From a virus: a stretch of 23,305 bases of DNA. Under the pieces are notes generated by a model that did no database searches, was not told the origin of the DNA, and was given only the letters and a program-made list of their open reading frames with translations. The stretch lies in UHGV virus genome UHGV-0337120. One strand, given 5' to 3'. Every line of letters begins with the position of its first letter. The first letter of the stretch is position 1. Positions 6,289 through 18,131 of the stretch are shown here, in pieces. A program made the position numbers and the translations under genes.

Positions 6289-6582
6289 TTAACCAGTCTT
6301 CTTGCCGGAGTGGGGTGATTCCGATTCGCTTCGCCCAATGTGTGCGAGAGCCGGTACCACCTGCCCGACCTTTGGTTCGACCTCATCGAACAAAAACCAG
6401 TCGCGGTATTTAGAAAATCTCGGGTGCTTAAAAAGCTTGATAGTGATCTCAAGACCAGGAAGGTTACGACCATACTCATAACTGGTCAGAGCAGAGTAAG
6501 AAATCCCAATCATATCAGCGAACTCCCGTTGAGTGAGATCTTCAGATTTACGCATGACGCGAATTTTTTGAGGAATGTCCAT
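6289..6582 (-). CDS. C: Immunity repressor, P2 C-like
   Basis: 97 aa; MRKSE...PALAH...SPHSG.KTG aligns with P2 C from memory; AGGAG RBS; divergent from cox-like gene and upstream of int as in P2. Confidence 0.85.
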   Translation of the reverse strand: MDIPQKIRVMRKSEDLTQREFADMIGISYSALTSYEYGRNLPGLEITIKLFKHPRFSKYRDWFLFDEVEPKVGQVVPALAHIGRSESESPHSGKKTG

Positions 6583-7858: not shown

Positions 7859-8197
7859 ATGAAGCAACAACGAAATGCACGCATCAATAACAACACCGAA
7901 CGCCACGTTGCACGCCAGCACTTCCGTAAAAATAGTGCGACCGTAACCACTGAAATCCATGTAACACCAGACGGTCACCCGGTAAAACAAACCGGCAAAC
8001 ACACCTGGGCGATTGGCGACACTGCCATCGTTATTCACAAAAGTTTTCGCAGTCCTGTTACTGGCAGATTTAATTTCACCCTGACTCGCGGGGATGATTA
8101 CTTCGGACAGGATTTCACATTTTTTGAAGCCTTAAGAACGGCAGACAGATTAATCAACGGCCTGTGTTTTCAATATCCGGGAAGTAAGTACCGATAA
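7859..8197 (+). CDS. Hypothetical early protein
   Basis: 112-aa ORF tightly packed in the early operon. Confidence 0.5.
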   Translation: MKQQRNARINNNTERHVARQHFRKNSATVTTEIHVTPDGHPVKQTGKHTWAIGDTAIVIHKSFRSPVTGRFNFTLTRGDDYFGQDFTFFEALRTADRLINGLCFQYPGSKYR

Positions 8198-8212
8198 ATA
8201 AAGGATTCAGTC

Positions 8213-8455
8213 ATGATCGAAGCCTACAAAATACTTATTAATAACGCGTTGCAGCGTTACCACTTTGAACTCGCAAACAGGGGCGTAACTAAGGATGAAA
8301 GCCTTCGTAACTCACTGCGCGGCGCAATTATGGGACTGTATAACTGCGCGCTGGGCAGCGATGACCGTGAAGCGCTGGAAGAATTAAAGTCGATTATGAC
8401 AGAACTGTTTGAAGGTGAAATTGTTGAGCCTTACTTCACAGGGGTGGCAGCATGA
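8213..8455 (+). CDS. Hypothetical early protein
   Basis: 80-aa ORF; stop overlaps the next start (ATGA). Confidence 0.5.
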   Translation: MIEAYKILINNALQRYHFELANRGVTKDESLRNSLRGAIMGLYNCALGSDDREALEELKSIMTELFEGEIVEPYFTGVAA

Positions 8456-8577
8456 TCATATTCCTTTCATGGCTAATTCTGATTATCTCCGTACTTATGG
8501 CAATCGGCATTATGCGAATTATCCACACACTGAAGGATATCGAATTATTCTTTACCGGCGATAAACGCCGTAAATAA
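8452..8577 (+). CDS. Small hydrophobic single-TM peptide (41 aa)
   Basis: MIIFLSWLILIISVLMAIGIMRIIHTLKDIELFFTGDKRRK; ATGA-coupled to upstream gene. Confidence 0.35.
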   Translation: MIIFLSWLILIISVLMAIGIMRIIHTLKDIELFFTGDKRRK

Positions 8578-8589
8578 AGCGAAAACGTT

Positions 8590-8685
8590 ATGAAGAATGT
8601 AAAAGCAATACTCACCATTGCCAGTGTGTGGCTGATATTTCAGGTGTGTGCGCTTATCTGGTTAGCCCTGAAGATCTGGGAATAA
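8590..8685 (+). CDS. Small hydrophobic single-TM peptide (31 aa)
   Basis: MKNVKAILTIASVWLIFQVCALIWLALKIWE; weak RBS. Confidence 0.3.
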   Translation: MKNVKAILTIASVWLIFQVCALIWLALKIWE

Positions 8686-8790
8686 CCTTAAGCTTCAAAT
8701 AAGAACGCAATAACACCAGAAAACATACGAACAATTAATTAAGGCATTCATGCCATCGGGTTCCCTTTGTCTTTTTTCAGGAGTCAACAA

Positions 8791-11302: not shown

Positions 11303-11655
11303 TTTATATCGCCGGTCCAATGACCGGATACAAAGATCACAACAGAACGGCGTTTTTCACAGAGGCGATGAGGCTCGCGGCAGACGGGCACGTTGTGCTG
11401 AACCCTGCCACGTTGCCGGAAGGATTAAGCCAGCAGCAGTACATGAGCATTTGTATTCCGATGCTCATGTGTGCCGATGTCATTTACTTGCTGGAAGGCT
11501 GGGAGGATTCAGCTGGCGCGCGGGCGGAGTACGCAATGGCACTCAAGCTGAACATAGACGTGTCATTACCGCCTGTCAGGGAAGACGGTAAAAGCATCAC
11601 GCAGCCGGGAGTCGATCAGACGCCGCACAACCAGCAGATTAACCTTTCGGAGTAA
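11293..11655 (+). CDS. Nucleoside 2-deoxyribosyltransferase-like protein (DUF4406-like)
   Basis: N-terminal VIYIAGPMTGY...N...F...A..L...GHVVLNP pattern typical of the NDT-like fold, recalled from memory. Confidence 0.5.
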   Translation: MAVIYIAGPMTGYKDHNRTAFFTEAMRLAADGHVVLNPATLPEGLSQQQYMSICIPMLMCADVIYLLEGWEDSAGARAEYAMALKLNIDVSLPPVREDGKSITQPGVDQTPHNQQINLSE

Positions 11656-12083
11656 CGCAAATGCTCGCTGGCAGACAGACCAACAGATGCGCTCGCTTTG
11701 TTTTTTGCGGGCCTGACAAACGCCTTCATGGATGCGCTGTTCGTTTCTTCCAGATACAGAATGCGCTCAATCAGGCGTTCAGTGCTCATGAAATCCCTTT
11801 GCGTAATCAGACGAAGGTAGCTCTGTTTCTGCCAGCACGCCAGTTCGGCGACGAATTCACACTTGCTGCAAAACCAGGAAAAAACAAAAAATGCCAGTCC
11901 GCAAAGACTCATCAGGACGGGGAAACCTACGAGAAGAAAGGACAATACCGCAGCAATCAGCGCCCCGGCGCGCAACATGGCAGCGGCTTTATTGCTGAGT
12001 ATGAAAACCATCTCTTCCAGCCAATAGCTGTACCACAGATGAAAAAAAATCTTCTTGTCTGCTTGCTCCATAGTAACAGGCAT
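11616..12083 (-). CDS. Two-TM membrane protein, antisense to early operon (cargo candidate)
   Basis: ATG 12083 with GGAGG RBS 7 nt upstream; hydrophobic helices AMLRAGALIAAVLSFLLVGFPVLM and LCGLAFFVFSWFC, then a soluble C-terminal domain; 3' end overlaps the convergent upstream gene by 40 nt. Confidence 0.55.
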   Translation of the reverse strand: MPVTMEQADKKIFFHLWYSYWLEEMVFILSNKAAAMLRAGALIAAVLSFLLVGFPVLMSLCGLAFFVFSWFCSKCEFVAELACWQKQSYLRLITQRDFMSTERLIERILYLEETNSASMKAFVRPAKNKASASVGLSASEHLRYSERLICWLCGV

Positions 12084-12469
12084 AAACAACCTCCATTGTT
12101 AATAAACGCCGCTATCCCTCGGCGCATTCCATTTTTGCGCCGCGATTATACATACTTCAGCACGCAACACAAAAACCGCTTGCCAGCGCTCGTCGTGTCA
12201 GGTTACATTTCCGCTGCACCTCATAAAACGGGTGCCGGGATTTCCACCCCGCTGACAAACGAAGCGCACAGCCGCGCCAGCGGTTTTTTTGTGCGTACTG
12301 TATCGCCACGTCTTTTTCGCGTCAGAATTATGGCGGGGCGTACAGGGCCGACTTCGGTCGGGCCGGTTTCTTCGTTTGCCGGTTGTGGAAACCCTGTACG
12401 TCTCGCCACCCTGAGTTTTCCACCTCTGGTTGGTGAGTTTTCAAAATTCACAAACGAAGAGGCCACACC

Positions 12470-12691
12470 ATGGCAAACCGCAAGCAACAGCGCGCCCGCG
12501 CTGAGCGTCTTCACATCCGCAGCGAAATCAACCGCAGACTCCATCGGGCTGCATCTGTCGCCTTTATCATGCAGTCAAACGTATTACACCGACTTAACGA
12601 CGGTATCGCTGCCGGGTATTACGCGGCAGTCTTCAGCTATCTCGCCGAAGATCTGGCAGAACTACAAAGCCTCATCAACCAGCACCGATAA
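12470..12691 (+). CDS. Hypothetical protein (P2 orf82/83-region equivalent)
   Basis: 73 aa; GAAGAGG RBS; follows a 370-bp ORF-free structured region. Confidence 0.45.
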   Translation: MANRKQQRARAERLHIRSEINRRLHRAASVAFIMQSNVLHRLNDGIAAGYYAAVFSYLAEDLAELQSLINQHR

Positions 12692-12759
12692 ACCACATCC
12701 GGAAGCTATCCCACACCTGCACGCGGGAGGCTTCCGCACATCTGTTACCGGAGGTTCTC

Positions 12760-13176
12760 ATGAAGAGCGTTAAGGGGCTTTCAGATATTCAGGACTTTTT
12801 TAACTGGATGTGGGCGGTGGATCCCCTGCTGGCTTCCCGCCTGAACAACTGGCACGACTATTACCGCCGCGCCTGTAAACAGGCTGCCCGCAGCGTCACC
12901 ACATACGGGGATTTCTCCTTCACCGTGGACGGTCGTTACCGCGTGGACGTGAAAGGTGATGGTGATGGACTGGGTTTATTTCACATCAACGGCACCGACA
13001 GTACCGCCATCAGCTGGTCGTCATCAGAGATGGCGCTGGTTCTGGAAATGACAACCCACAGCGTGGCCGTGAAAGGTATATACACCGCAGAAGGTTTTAT
13101 CGGCGAATACCAGCGCCTTCTCGTGCTGTACCGCGCGGCGTTTCAGGTGGCAACTGCCGGGGAGTACGACGCATGA
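12760..13176 (+). CDS. Hypothetical protein upstream of A
   Basis: 138 aa; GGAGG RBS; stop overlaps A start (ATGA). Confidence 0.5.
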   Translation: MKSVKGLSDIQDFFNWMWAVDPLLASRLNNWHDYYRRACKQAARSVTTYGDFSFTVDGRYRVDVKGDGDGLGLFHINGTDSTAISWSSSEMALVLEMTTHSVAVKGIYTAEGFIGEYQRLLVLYRAAFQVATAGEYDA

Positions 13177-15686
13177 GTGACCGCAATGCACAGCTGGCGT
13201 ACCCGTGGAACGCACCGCTACCGGTTATCGATCCTGAAACGTTCGGCAGAGCACAACCAACCGCATTACGCCAGGCCATTCAGAGCTACATCAACGAGGA
13301 CATTCGCATTGATGCCAGACTGGATGAAGAAACCGTCTCCTTCCTGACAAACACAGACGAAGGCAAGCGAATTAATTCGCACCTTCACCACGACGAAGAG
13401 CGTCGGATCAGACTGGAAAAACTGGCGCGGCACAAACGCGAAAATCCGCCCACACTGGTATCTGAAGCCATGGCAGAGCTGCGCGCCCTGCCGCCGTTTC
13501 TTGCCAGTCCGCTCATCCGGGACCTGGCTCGCCTGAGCCGCAAACAGGAGAGCGCACGCCGGGAAGGGCTTAAGAATAACAGCGCATATGCGGCGGATAA
13601 CTTCGTTCGTCATGGGCTGCGTGCCCGCCTGAAACGTATCGCCCGTGTGAATGAACGCTTTGCCACCCCGGCCTTTAAGGCCACCGCCGCCCGCGAACGG
13701 CTGGATGAACTGCTTATACTGCCGCAGCTGAGCCGTGACGAAATCCAGCGCCTTGCCACCCTGACCGCCACCGCGTTTTCCGCCGCACTGGAGCGCGCAT
13801 GTGATGAGATCATCGAAAAGACCGGCAGGGGTGACGATGACCTGTTCACCTGGTTACTGACCTACCAGTCACTGGCACACATGGCGTTAAAACTGGGTAT
13901 CACGCCACCCTGCTGGCCGTCGCTGGAAATCAGGCCAGACCGCCGCACCGCCCCCAACCCGGAACGGGTGCCGGGTGCGGTCATGCGCCTTTCCTGTGCG
14001 ACATGGTGGAACAGTCAGTTAAGACACCTCCGGGACATCTGGCGTGAAGAGCTGTTACGCGCCGCAGGTCTGGTGTCACGTAAGACATCGGTATATATCA
14101 GCCATGAAGCGTTACTGGACTGGCGCGAAAAACGCCAGCGCACCCGCGATTTTCTGAAGGCCTGGGACATCGAGAACGAAGAGGGAGAACGGTTCAGCCT
14201 TGAGGATATCTACTGGGCAGGTCTCTCTAATCCGCGTAACCGCCGTAACGAGATGATGACCTGCGCCCGGGGAATGGAGCAGGTCGCCGAAGCACGCGGC
14301 GATGTGGCGTTTTTCGTCACCGTCACAGCCCCTTCCCGTTTTCACAGCGTGAACGATGACGGCAGTCTGAACCCGAAATACTGCGGGGCAACGGTACGCG
14401 ATGCCAGTGATTATCTGGTTTACCGCTTTTTCGCCGCCGTCCGCAGGGCCATCGACAAGGCCGGGCTGGGCTGGTACGGCGTGCGCACAGTGGAGCCCCA
14501 CCACGACGGTACACCGCACTGGCACATGCTGGTATTCACCAGCCAGGAAAACGAAGCCCGTATCACTGAAATCATGCGCAACGCCGCCATCAGGGAGGAC
14601 CGCGCAGAGCTGGGTGATGATATCTCCCCGCGTTTTAAATGCGAAAAAATCGACCCGGCAAAAGGCACACCGACAAGCTATATCGCGACCTATATCGGTA
14701 AGAACCTGGACGCCAGCGCCTTCATGGGAAATGACCCGAAAACCGGCAAACCTTACGTCGATAAGGAATCAGGCAAAACCATGGCCGAAACCGTGGAGAA
14801 CGCCATCGGCTGGGCAGGCCTTCACCGCATCCACCAGTTCCAGTTCTTCGGTATCCCGCCCCGCCAGGTATGGCGCGAACTCCGCAGCCTTGCCGGGCAG
14901 ATGGCCCGTAACCCGACTGCCCCACAGCGTCTGGACCATGACGACATTGACGCCATACTGGCCGCCGCCGACGTGGGATGTTTTGCCACCTATATCACCC
15001 GCCAGGGTGGTGTGCTCATTCCCCGCAACACGTACCTGGTCCGCACCGCATACGAAACTGCCGAAGAGGCCAACGACTACGGCGAATTCCCGCAACGCAT
15101 TTACGGCGTCCGCGCCCCGTTACTCGGGGAGCGCTACACCATATGCACCCACCCGGACACCTGGAAACTGGTCAGACGTAAGCCGGAAAACGAAGACCGC
15201 ACGGACGAGGGTTTTGACGTTGAGTGCGGCTTTGCCGCACCTTGGACTCGTGGCAATAACTGTCCCCATGATGAAAAAACAGACACCGGAGAGGGTAAAA
15301 CCCCACCACCGGAAGCCAGGAAAGAACAAAAACTGGTCGTCCCGGGAGGTGATTTGGGTGAGTGGTTAAGGTCACTGACCCCCACAAAGCGAAAACAACT
15401 CACCAGGCAGCTGAAAGATGCGACATCTGACACAAAAACCGTGAAAACCGGCAGCCCCACCACGCCCGATGACGTCATACATGTGCGTACAGCATTGCCG
15501 CTGACTGACGTCACCACCACCGTAATCAAGTCGGCACTGAGCGCGACGGGCGAGGAGCTACACAGTGGCGCAGCACTTTCCGTACACAGAGGTGCACGCG
15601 TTCGCCTGCCTGACGGGCGGATTGTGCACTGGGATGAGAAATCACGAAGCCTGGTGGCAGCAGATCAACCGGAGGTGAACCCATGA
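13173..15686 (+). CDS. A: Rolling-circle replication initiator, gpA-like
   Basis: 837 aa; VEPHHDGTPHWHMLVF matches P2 A VEPHHDGTPHWHMMLF (HUH-type metal motif); downstream GYIAKYISKN-like SYIATYIGKN also conserved. Confidence 0.92.
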   Translation: MSDRNAQLAYPWNAPLPVIDPETFGRAQPTALRQAIQSYINEDIRIDARLDEETVSFLTNTDEGKRINSHLHHDEERRIRLEKLARHKRENPPTLVSEAMAELRALPPFLASPLIRDLARLSRKQESARREGLKNNSAYAADNFVRHGLRARLKRIARVNERFATPAFKATAARERLDELLILPQLSRDEIQRLATLTATAFSAALERACDEIIEKTGRGDDDLFTWLLTYQSLAHMALKLGITPPCWPSLEIRPDRRTAPNPERVPGAVMRLSCATWWNSQLRHLRDIWREELLRAAGLVSRKTSVYISHEALLDWREKRQRTRDFLKAWDIENEEGERFSLEDIYWAGLSNPRNRRNEMMTCARGMEQVAEARGDVAFFVTVTAPSRFHSVNDDGSLNPKYCGATVRDASDYLVYRFFAAVRRAIDKAGLGWYGVRTVEPHHDGTPHWHMLVFTSQENEARITEIMRNAAIREDRAELGDDISPRFKCEKIDPAKGTPTSYIATYIGKNLDASAFMGNDPKTGKPYVDKESGKTMAETVENAIGWAGLHRIHQFQFFGIPPRQVWRELRSLAGQMARNPTAPQRLDHDDIDAILAAADVGCFATYITRQGGVLIPRNTYLVRTAYETAEEANDYGEFPQRIYGVRAPLLGERYTICTHPDTWKLVRRKPENEDRTDEGFDVECGFAAPWTRGNNCPHDEKTDTGEGKTPPPEARKEQKLVVPGGDLGEWLRSLTPTKRKQLTRQLKDATSDTKTVKTGSPTTPDDVIHVRTALPLTDVTTTVIKSALSATGEELHSGAALSVHRGARVRLPDGRIVHWDEKSRSLVAADQPEVNP

Positions 15687-16673: not shown

Positions 16674-16991
16674 ATGCCAACACAGGTTGCAACAGAGGGA
16701 CGACTGGCAGCAGACCCGAACACAAGGAGAACAACCAAAGGAACCAACGTCACAACGGCACAACTGGCGGTATCACTACCCTGCCATGGCGCAGAACAGC
16801 CAACCACAATGTGGCTTTACCTTATTTCATTCGGGAAGCAGCACGAAGAACTGGCAAAACACAGAAAAGGCGATCTGATTCTGGTGCACGGAAACTTGCA
16901 GGTAAACAGGTATCAGGACAAGTACGGGCAACAGAAAGAGGGCTGGCAGTTGCTGGCGCAAAGCATTATCAGCTCAAGAACCGGGCGATGA
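16674..16991 (+). CDS. Truncated SSB-like OB-fold protein lacking the acidic C-terminal tail
   Basis: 105 aa; G.L..DP..R.T..G..V....LAVS...W....FGK..E......KG....V.G.L....Y.D..GQ aligns with the E. coli SSB OB-fold from memory; no Gly-rich linker or DDDIPF tail. Confidence 0.5.
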   Translation: MPTQVATEGRLAADPNTRRTTKGTNVTTAQLAVSLPCHGAEQPTTMWLYLISFGKQHEELAKHRKGDLILVHGNLQVNRYQDKYGQQKEGWQLLAQSIISSRTGR

Positions 16992-17001
16992 CTTCACGCA
17001 T

Positions 17002-17041
17002 GTTACCCTCAGCAGCGAGGGTAACACAGGATTTCTTTTTT
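17002..17041 (+). terminator. Terminator hairpin between convergent genes
   Basis: Perfect 9-bp stem GTTACCCTC-agcagc-GAGGGTAAC, T-run at 17034-17039. Confidence 0.55.
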
Positions 17042-17547
17042 CAGTCAAACCGAAATCGGCCGCTTGTCGCGTATGCATAGGTGACCACCGCACCCAGCGC
17101 ATTCACACGCTTCTTCACATAAATCACATTACCATCCTGATAGTCACCGTATGGGTAGCAAATAAAGATTGTTTTTTGCAAATCAGGATCATCAACAAAT
17201 GCCCCTGAACAACTTTTTGAGCTACCGCGACTGTACTCATAGGGAGCGGAATAGAATGAATCTTCACCCGGAAGAAAATATATCAGCGTAACCAGGAGGG
17301 TAAACAGAATCATCCAGGTAAGAAGGCACATACCCGAAAAAAACTTAAGATACGATGTAACCCCGGTAAATTTAGACCGATCAACCAGGTTCTTTTTCAA
17401 CAGGCACAGTGAGACAAAAACCGAAAGCACCACAGACACTGAAACAAGGCAGTTTGTCGTGAACGAATAAAGGTAGGTAATTCTGTAAACATCGTTTCGC
17501 CACCAAATAAAAAGAAAAATCCCCCCCCAAAACAGAAAGCGTGACAA
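17041..17547 (-). CDS. Multi-TM membrane protein with C-terminal soluble domain (cargo candidate in A-cos region)
   Basis: 168-aa ORF, AT-rich; three hydrophobic segments then ~75-aa Y/G/D-rich tail; only TTG/GTG starts available; G8 tract (plus C8 17521-17528) within first 10 codons. Confidence 0.45.
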   Translation of the reverse strand: MSRFLFWGGIFLFIWWRNDVYRITYLYSFTTNCLVSVSVVLSVFVSLCLLKKNLVDRSKFTGVTSYLKFFSGMCLLTWMILFTLLVTLIYFLPGEDSFYSAPYEYSRGSSKSCSGAFVDDPDLQKTIFICYPYGDYQDGNVIYVKKRVNALGAVVTYAYATSGRFRFD

Positions 17548-17660
17548 AAGTTAAATAAGGATATGAGTAATTTTTCACAGTTCTCACCCGGCAATACACC
17601 ACTGATTCAGACAGATGATTATCATCACCACCCACCCCCAAAAATCGCAAGATAAAAAAT

Positions 17661-17690
17661 GCACAAAAGCGCACGAAATTGCACAATTTT
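17661..17690. repeat. Three helically phased 10-bp GCAC repeats upstream of the membrane-protein gene
   Basis: gcacaaaagc / gcacgaaatt / gcacaatttt start at 17661, 17671, 17681, exactly 10 bp apart. Confidence 0.35.
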
Positions 17691-17782
17691 TCTTATGTGT
17701 TTCATCCCCATTCAGCCCAGTAACGGCGCTGGCTGAGGCCGGTTTGCACGGTGCACGAAAAACGAGGCAATTGCAGCGCGCA

Positions 17783-17801
17783 GGCGACGAGGGAAGGGCG
17801 C
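17783..17801. other. Candidate cos (cohesive-end) site
   Basis: GGCGACGAGGGAAGGGCGC, G-rich 19-mer about 330 bp beyond the 3' end of Q; loosely resembles the P2/186 cos 19-mer recalled from memory (GGCGAGGCGGGGAAAGCAC). Uncertain. Confidence 0.25.
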
Positions 17802-18081
17802 CCGAATTGAGGGGTGGAAGGCAGGTTGCTTTATTTGGGGTCGTATTGCGCGTGATACGCCAGCAGTGAAGCCTGTTTTAAAAAACCACACCGAAACAGA
17901 GTCAGAAAAACAGGCCGCCAGAATGCGTCTGGTTGAGTTTTACGGGGTCGGGATTAAATGCGGAAACATCACACCGCAGGCATGACGCGAAAAAGAGAAA
18001 AACCACAGCAAAACATAATGTTAAATGTTATTGATGAGTTGAGAAGCGAAAGGTGTATTGCGTTGACAGAGCTGGAGAGTC

Positions 18082-18106
18082 GGGGCATAAATTTTTTATG
18101 CCCCGG
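18082..18106. other. Perfect 11-bp inverted repeat downstream of Q
   Basis: CGGGGCATAAA-ttt-TTTATGCCCCG, 26 bp beyond the Q stop; no clear U-tract on either strand. Confidence 0.4.
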
Positions 18107-18131
18107 CGAAGCAGCCGACAAGCGAAGCGCG

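Follow-up and report, generated by a model that had tools for sequence, protein, structure and literature searches.

The question raised by the virus genome UHGV-0337120, a DNA stretch of 23,305 nucleotides which is referred to below as the window, is what function resides between positions 12090 and 12469, upstream of a 73-codon open reading frame (ORF73). A sequence-only reading of this region had suggested a possible structured regulatory RNA, a replication element or the promoter region of a membrane-protein gene on the opposite strand. We propose that the region constitutes a cassette for RNA-based secondary immunity (anti-immunity), of the type represented by CI/seqA of phage P4 and c4 of phages P1 and P7, located in the early operon of a P2-family (P88/Xuanwuvirus-like) prophage. 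We assign this reading a probability of roughly 80%, a figure which covers the identity of the cassette and its core antisense logic. The cassette most likely keeps an anti-repressor-like gene of the prophage off, and perhaps the replication gene too.

The search of the whole window against Rfam at the gathering thresholds gave exactly two matches, both on the plus strand. The C4 antisense RNA (RF01695) was found at 12326-12413 (82.1 bits against a cut-off of 45, E = 4.9e-15, model positions 1-87 of 87) and isrK (RF01394) at 12216-12290 (64.1 bits against a cut-off of 50, E = 7.8e-12, model positions 1-77 of 77). A permissive Rfam search of 12000-12800 detected no further families. It is practically certain that the region belongs to the C4 and isrK RNA families. 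What had been put forward as a possible structured regulatory RNA can thus be named a C4/CI-type antisense RNA with an IsrK/SeqA-type leader, and the covariation-aware family search that the sequence-only reading had recommended as a check returned full-length matches to both models.

The C4 RNA, whose mature form is predicted at about 12331-12410, consists of a 17-bp closing stem (12331-12347 with 12392-12408), a UUCG hairpin CCGAC-UUCG-GUCGG (12348-12361) and a second hairpin (12362-12383) with a 12-nt loop. Both pairings noticed previously from the letters alone have their place in this fold: the UUCG hairpin is present, and the long-range pairing, GCGTACAGGG (12338-12347) with CCCTGTACG (12392-12400), lies within the closing stem. 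The folding energy of the 88-nt unit (−48.9 kcal/mol, z = −6.07) was equalled by none of 200 dinucleotide shuffles. In the 23 distinct family members compared, the three stems had 98.1% of their cells paired, and 14 of the 27 pairs showed compensatory change, among them four of the five pairs of the UUCG hairpin; the covariation score was matched by none of 500 shuffles. Over all the counts made, stem pairing amounted to 98-100% of cells. The third stem is invariant, partly because the pattern used for collecting loci required that stem. The scan of viral contigs with this motif (CTTCGGNNNNGCCGGTTT) produced mostly chance matches (C4 RNA was present in 5 of the first 20 loci), and its true matches, which serve as distant comparators, bias the third stem toward invariance. 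The closing stem is directly followed by ACC (12409-12411). Such a CCA-like trailer is expected of an RNase P substrate, as is known from P1 and P4.

The leader RNA (75 nt, 12216-12290) ends about 35-40 nt upstream of C4. Its assignment is based on the Rfam match, a terminator scan and the covarying blocks a1 and b1 described below, and its parts are, in order, hairpin 1, hairpin 2 carrying a1 in its loop, the single-stranded b1 and an intrinsic terminator (stem 12270-12285, U7 at 12284-12290). A sigma-70-like consensus scan detected a promoter-like site on the plus strand, P-isrK (12180-12209), with the −35 hexamer TTGCCA (12180-12185), an 18-nt spacer and the −10 hexamer TACATT (12204-12209). 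Transcription is predicted to start at about 12216, and the isrK model begins 7 nt past the −10 hexamer. The alignment of 45 unique upstream regions showed that both hexamers are invariant and the spacer sequence is variable.

Two additional pairings were observed around the leader. A 17-nt inverted repeat (12167-12183 and 12276-12292, 88% complementary) was found, and the conserved A-rich block ACACAAAAACCGCTTGC, immediately ahead of the −35 hexamer, is complementary enough to pair with the terminator's 3' half and U-run. As this block is only present in transcripts begun upstream, at the early promoter, it could act as an antiterminator; the pairing could also be a coincidence of an A-tract and a U-tract. 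The spacer between the leader and C4 holds GTATCGCCAC (12300-12309), which nearly repeats GTCTCGCCAC (12400-12409) from the 3' strand of the C4 closing stem, and the minimum-free-energy fold of a 271-nt transcript pairs the spacer with the C4 5' strand. This pairing may represent an alternative precursor structure according to the modelled fold; inspection by eye revealed no covariation in it.

An argument for an antisense function comes from six hypervariable blocks which interrupt an otherwise near-invariant scaffold in the upstream-region alignment and which change together. Two of them are in the leader, a1 (12241-12247) in the loop of hairpin 2 and b1 (12256-12264) in the single strand ahead of the terminator. 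Two are in C4, b' (12367-12378), which is the 12-nt loop of the second hairpin, and a' (12385-12391) in the single strand ahead of the 3' half of the closing stem. The last two are downstream: a2 (UUUCCAC, 12417-12423) just past C4 and b2 (CAAACGAAGAGG, 12451-12462), which extends over the ORF73 Shine-Dalgarno (SD) sequence GAGG (12459-12462). All six are on the plus strand, and the nomenclature of the targets follows Rfam RF03163. Block a' is complementary to a1 as well as a2, and b' likewise to b1 and b2. A repeat finder recovered these antisense and target blocks without prior knowledge.

The complementarity is maintained while the sequences change. Pairing was counted in 41 distinct sequences, and compensatory changes were found in five of the seven a1-a' pairs (98.9% of cells paired), seven of the nine b1-b' pairs (98.6%), five of the eight a'-a2 pairs (92.4%) and seven of the 12 b'-b2 pairs (87.4%), with up to five pair types at a single pair; slid controls gave about 40% pairing. 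For both whole structures, each composed of the stems and one antisense-target set, the covariation score was reached by none of 500 shuffles, and the same was true of the energy of the b'-b2 duplex (−21.9 kcal/mol; 0 of 500). The sequences are related and recombining, so the cell counts do not represent independent events; the robust part of the covariation evidence is the number of distinct matched types, i.e. seven a' types and 17 b' types occurring in 26 combinations. As an individual example, the b' block of phage P88 reads GUUCUGUAGUUG. An apparent recombinant (L135, 213-488) carries a leader with a1 and b1 of the window type, together with C4, a2 and b2 of another type.

The arrangement of the blocks is equally constant. 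Among 21 C4 loci, which include P4, P88 and P4-like satellites, b2 is in all 21 cases positioned 27-37 nt past the C4 3' end, where it covers a GGAG or GAGG that precedes a start codon, and a2 lies 1-6 nt past this end in 20, with a1 and b1 located in the leader. A scan of viral and genome collections based on ORF73 provided 63 loci with 58-100% amino acid identity (genome contigs contributed two of them), and the isrK-C4 region was found directly upstream of the ORF73 homologue in every one. The order isrK, C4, ORF73 homologue, ORF of about 130 amino acids and gpA homologue is kept wherever there is sufficient downstream sequence, and the upstream genes vary. The window itself represents a P2-family prophage (the E. 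coli prophage DETEC-S792 is 99.3% identical) integrated beside chpSB/ppa, and the gene order around the RNA region is identical in phage P88 (Xuanwuvirus, Peduoviridae). The placement within an early operon, which had been suggested previously, is thereby confirmed and can be specified as that of a P2-family prophage.

The gene whose SD sequence is covered by b2, ORF73 (12470-12691, plus strand), encodes a homologue of P4 epsilon, the helper derepression protein. ORF73 matched Pfam PF25738 (Derepression protein) with 27.9 bits (cut-off 27), showed 34% identity with epsilon over 50 amino acids in BLASTP (E = 1e-8) and was aligned with epsilon by hhalign with 95.5% probability (E = 1.4e-8). Its variability at the three codon positions is 0.34, 0.37 and 0.69; the third position, about twice as variable as the first and second, indicates that ORF73 is a real coding gene. 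It is followed by ORF138 (12760-13176, plus strand; PHROG 3237) and by the gene of the replication initiator gpA (13173-15686, plus strand; Pfam Phage_GPA). NCBIfam gave no match for ORF73, ORF138 or the spanning frame f1 described below.

The closest counterpart of this organization is the immunity region of P4 (PLE, seqA, CI/seqB, seqC, nested eta/kil, epsilon and alpha). The same two Rfam models which match the window also match the minus strand of the P4 genome, C4 at 8420-8507 (74.9 bits) and isrK at 8615-8692 (60.8 bits), where the CI RNA and the seqA leader lie. In both genomes, a promoter (PLE in P4, P-isrK in the window) is followed by a leader with a1/b1, by the C4/CI RNA with a'/b' and by a2/b2, of which b2 covers the SD sequence of the next ORF, and an epsilon homologue and a replication gene are present downstream. 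Both also have an ORF that begins ahead of the internal promoter, spans the RNAs and stops where the next gene starts. According to one report (PMC10111431, citing Forti et al. 1999), CI and seqA lie inside P4 eta, a gene that begins ahead of the constitutive internal promoter and is coupled to its upstream neighbour, and translation of eta keeps CI-dependent termination from occurring.

The two systems also differ in several respects. The window is a complete P2-family phage of the helper type, whereas P4 is a satellite. In the window, b2 covers the SD sequence of the epsilon homologue, whose reading frame differs from that of the spanning ORF; in P4, the ORF at this place is kil, which shares the frame of eta and precedes epsilon. 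The window has no such in-frame nested ORF behind b2. The downstream replication gene encodes a P2-type A protein (rolling-circle nickase) in the window but the alpha primase in P4. The spacer between the leader and C4 is about 35 nt long in the window and about 107 nt in P4, and ORF138 is unrelated to P4 ORF151, with no similarity detected between them.

The other characterized relatives share the logic but control different genes. The immI region of P1 and P7 (c4, icd, ant) has the same two-segment a'/b' arrangement with upstream a1/b1 and downstream a2/b2, and its RNA belongs to the same Rfam family as the window C4. Differences in specificity define heteroimmunity there, and the controlled gene is an anti-repressor of the Ant family, in contrast to the epsilon family in the window. 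The lambdoid prophage Gifsy-1 (isrK, 'orf45'/STnc1160, anrP) also has a terminated IsrK leader, a processed RNA of about 80 nt and an anti-repressor gene (PMC4825925). This anti-repressor is of a different family, and IsrK supplied in trans was shown to activate translation in Gifsy-1. The nucleotide sequence of 'orf45' is conserved and its amino acid sequence is not (PMC4825925), and the spanning frame of the window is likewise unconserved at the amino acid level. In N15, whose anti-immunity region comprises the CA RNA and an antirepressor operon, gene 32 and the terminator region were found by BLAST with the RNA region of the window, although the genome type and the downstream genes are different. 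The equivalence of these systems is not new. IsrK-C4 was equated with P4 seqA-CI, and N15 was grouped with P1, P7 and P4 (PMC3632133); IsrK was recognized as homologous to SeqA, and STnc1160 as a processed RNA resembling CI (PMC4825925); and the equivalence of IsrK with seqA and of C4 with CI is found in three reports (PMC3632133, PMC4825925, PMC10111431).

In contrast to the claim that the region is free of ORFs, a plus-strand frame of 370 codons, f1 (11661-12773), spans it in the window, and shorter ORFs are present on both strands. This counterpart of P4 eta has 205-207 codons in most relatives. In the window, it starts with an ATG at 11661, preceded by a GGAG SD sequence and located 5 nt past the stop codon of the DUF4406 gene, crosses the antisense membrane gene, P-isrK, the leader, C4 and then ORF73, relative to which it is in the +1 frame, and ends 11 nt after the ORF138 start codon. 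In most relatives, f1 begins with an ATG about 57 nt ahead of the leader start; this ATG precedes the −35 hexamer and follows the stop codon of the preceding gene by a few nucleotides. At the other end, the f1 stop shares nucleotides with the ATG that starts the next gene, frequently in the form ATGA. Where relatives have the antisense membrane gene, f1 runs on across it as in the window. No stop interrupts f1 in any of the 41 distinct relatives between a point upstream of the promoter and about 300 nt past the ORF73 start, while the other two plus-strand frames contain 121 and 77 stops in total over that stretch. None of 78 variants of the hypervariable blocks has a stop in f1, compared with 15 and 25 in the other frames. 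All 16 more distant members likewise keep the spanning frame open; in P4, which is one of them, this frame is eta. Three relatives have a +1 insertion in a1 offset by a −1 deletion at a2, which leaves f1 intact; another one (L025) has the same two indels plus a 1-nt insertion which puts the upstream ATG out of frame. The region thus has no protein gene of the usual kind and is yet not frame-free. A contig with two tandem isrK-C4 cassettes of different a'/b' specificities (L058, 3165-3716) carries both of them inside one 611-codon open frame.

The probability that f1 is open by chance was estimated for the overlapped genes: P is about 0.003 and about 0.002 that the respective variants of the membrane gene avoid TTA, CTA and TCA codons, and about 0.04-0.05 that synonymous resampling of ORF73 leaves its +1 frame open, values which are only moderately small. 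Other genes of the window have 0.7-3.8 in-phase antisense stops and 2.3-7.8 +1-frame stops per 100 codons. We consider it possible, although doubtful, that f1 is kept open for the transit of ribosomes and not for its product, as a translational bridge coupling the upstream early gene to ORF138 and A and overriding the RNA switch. If so, transcripts from the early promoter would pass the leader terminator, C4, the out-of-frame epsilon-like gene and, in the window, the inserted antisense membrane gene, and stop avoidance would be selected for in RNA genes, in a gene overlapped in the +1 frame on the same strand and in one on the opposite strand. This conserved but non-coding-like spanning frame is the least explained element of the cassette. 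Reading its extension through the membrane gene as a coding sequence was rejected, because the substitutions there follow the third positions of the membrane gene.

From the behaviour of P1/P7, P4, N15 and Gifsy-1, the following mechanism may be envisaged. P-isrK would be constitutively active in the lysogen, and most transcripts would end at the leader terminator. The read-through RNA would be processed, by RNase P at its 5' end, into a stable C4 RNA, which would pair with a2/b2 in cis or in trans and block ORF73 translation. The untranslated RNA would then be terminated, and ORF138 and A would stay silent as a consequence of this proposed polarity. The pairing of C4 with a1/b1 might reinforce termination, in the manner of P4 and N15, or the free leader might titrate C4, in the manner of IsrK in Gifsy-1. 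ORF73 would, like P4 epsilon, inactivate a C repressor of the P2 type. In the lytic cycle, RNA begun at the early promoter would carry the f1 start codon, and ribosomes translating f1 across the leader, C4 and ORF73 to the ORF138 start would override the switch, as eta does in P4. Three of these steps, i.e. polarity reaching gene A, the anti-repressor function of ORF73 and the override by f1, rest on analogy and range in our estimation from doubtful to slightly favoured.

Several points weigh against this reading. Promoter activity, RNA ends, processing and action in trans are all deduced from the studied relatives, as is the extension of C4 control to gene A by polarity. The relatives themselves disagree on the leader, which promotes termination in P4 and N15, whereas IsrK activates in Gifsy-1. 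In the recombinant L135, a1 and b1 do not match the C4 of the same locus, and the upstream targets may therefore be dispensable. The Pfam score of ORF73 is marginal, barely above the cut-off. As regards the spanning frame, about five of the 41 relatives lack an intact f1 start or have frameshifts, substitution patterns indicate amino acid selection on ORF73 and the membrane gene and not on f1, and the window f1 scored 15.3 bits with Pfam PF10554 (Phage_ASH), which is below the cut-off of 26.

The conserved frame raises the possibility that the region is primarily a protein gene, encoding an Eta/Ash-like (Bro-network) regulator of 205-370 amino acids, and that the RNA structures are incidental or secondary. 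The frame is indeed open in all relatives, P4 eta is reported as translated (PMC10111431), Phage_ASH matches P4 eta (82.4 bits) and the f1 homologue of one relative (L166, 32.7 bits), and PHROG families annotated as 'transcriptional regulator' match f1 residues 166-288. These family matches, however, coincide exactly with RNA-encoding nucleotides: the Phage_ASH match covers exactly the residues encoded by the leader-C4 nucleotides, and PHROGs 821, 995, 6928 and 3960 match translations of nucleotides encoding the RNAs. The P4 RefSeq record (L185, NC_001609) contains, at 8168-8584, an obsolete coding sequence (CDS) for a 137-amino-acid 'cI gene product, transcriptional repressor' over the CI RNA; a CDS of this kind can seed such families and is probably the reason for the PHROG matches to f1. 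Such matches to Phage_ASH and PHROG may therefore partly reflect RNA conservation. The f1 of L166 and P4 eta showed no significant similarity in BLASTP, and the low Phage_ASH score of the window f1 speaks against the protein as well. Moreover, the compensatory base changes in the stems and blocks are not predicted by selection on a protein, and where f1 overlaps ORF73 or the membrane gene, the codon-position variability follows these genes. We regard a primary protein gene as improbable.

An equally small share of probability falls to a purely cis-acting leader or attenuator for ORF73-A, in which the terminator and SD-sequestering hairpins would operate without a stable trans-acting RNA. Such a switch would be consistent with the terminator after the leader and with the minimum-free-energy fold of the 271-nt transcript, which pairs b' with b2 in cis and hides the SD sequence. 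On the other hand, the C4 RNA of the window belongs over its full length to a family in which the RNAs studied so far (P1/P7 c4, P4 CI and Gifsy-1 STnc1160) are processed, stable and trans-acting. The many matched specificity types are expected from immunity between phages, and a private cis switch gives no reason for them.

It is very unlikely that the 62-amino-acid ORF on the minus strand (12221-12409), which is annotated by PGAP in DETEC-S792 (WP_024192890.1) and also in the P88 record, is a real gene. Its frame is open in 36 of the 41 relatives, but it is frameshifted in the other five and the start codon is lost in two, so that seven relatives lack an intact ORF and it was rejected as a gene. 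The enclosing 107-amino-acid mechanical ORF (12221-12544) has no match in Pfam or PHROG, and the frame mirrors f1 in phase on the antisense strand, over RNA sequence that is strongly conserved.

The suggestion that the region is a replication origin, or a mere divergent promoter spacer for the membrane gene, is just as remote: the region does lie upstream of gene A and a minus-strand TATAAT (12150-12145) is kept as TAGAAT in a variant, but iterons are absent, every repeat found belongs either to an RNA stem or to an antisense-target block, the P2 origin sits inside gene A, the cassette is present in relatives without the membrane gene, and the promoter idea covers only about 12096-12175. Of the functions offered by the sequence-only reading, the replication element thus finds no support in the repeats, and the membrane-gene promoter is plausible for the left part of about 90 bp, where TATAAT or TAGAAT occurs, and not for the remainder.

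The cassette described here is of a well-known kind, and Rfam detects it automatically. We found nothing in the literature on an isrK-C4 cassette in P2-like phages. The P4-type cassette with an epsilon homologue appears here as native to a P2-family lineage, directly ahead of the replication gene A, which suggests that the tools used by the satellite for helper derepression share ancestry with the anti-immunity module of the helper family itself. The seven a' and 17 b' matched blocks constitute a natural set of predicted heteroimmunity types. For annotation, 'hypothetical protein' calls in E. coli prophages and in P88 can be replaced by two RNA genes with a regulatory logic, and protein-family matches which may partly reflect conserved RNA genes are a matter of importance for annotation pipelines.

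The remaining features of the window concern the surroundings of the cassette. The gene order begins with the integrase, a C-like helix-turn-helix (HTH) repressor (6289-6582, minus strand) and Cox, followed by early genes for an exonuclease, Dam and DUF4406, then by the antisense membrane gene, the RNA region, ORF73, ORF138 and the replication endonuclease gpA, and later by the portal, terminase and capsid genes. The membrane gene (11616-12083, minus strand; PHROG 6315) lies between the DUF4406 gene and the cassette and encodes 155 amino acids. It occurs in two variants with only 38% identity, and its substitutions are concentrated at its own third codon positions. The sequence suggests that its promoter may be at 12145-12172 on the minus strand, with the candidate −10 element TATAAT at 12150-12145 and TAGAAT at the same place in the 38%-identical variant. 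Between this candidate promoter and the start of the gene, there is a GC hairpin (GCGCCG...CGGCGC, 12107-12126), which is followed by a T-rich run on the plus strand and is thus terminator-like; a different hairpin (ATCACC...GGTGAT) is found at the equivalent place in the other variant.

Two further observations were made outside the cassette. In an IMG/VR contig (L126), the ORF73 homologue contains CGGAAGAGCACACGTCTGAACT about 40-60 nt past its start, which we take to be an Illumina adapter sequence, so that the disruption of the ORF there would be an assembly artefact. In the window, a segment of about 1.1 kb (approximately 16990-18130) between the ssb-like and portal genes is unannotated in the 99%-identical genome, and mechanical ORFs are present in it; in P2-like phages, this interval tends to be occupied by cos and cargo genes.

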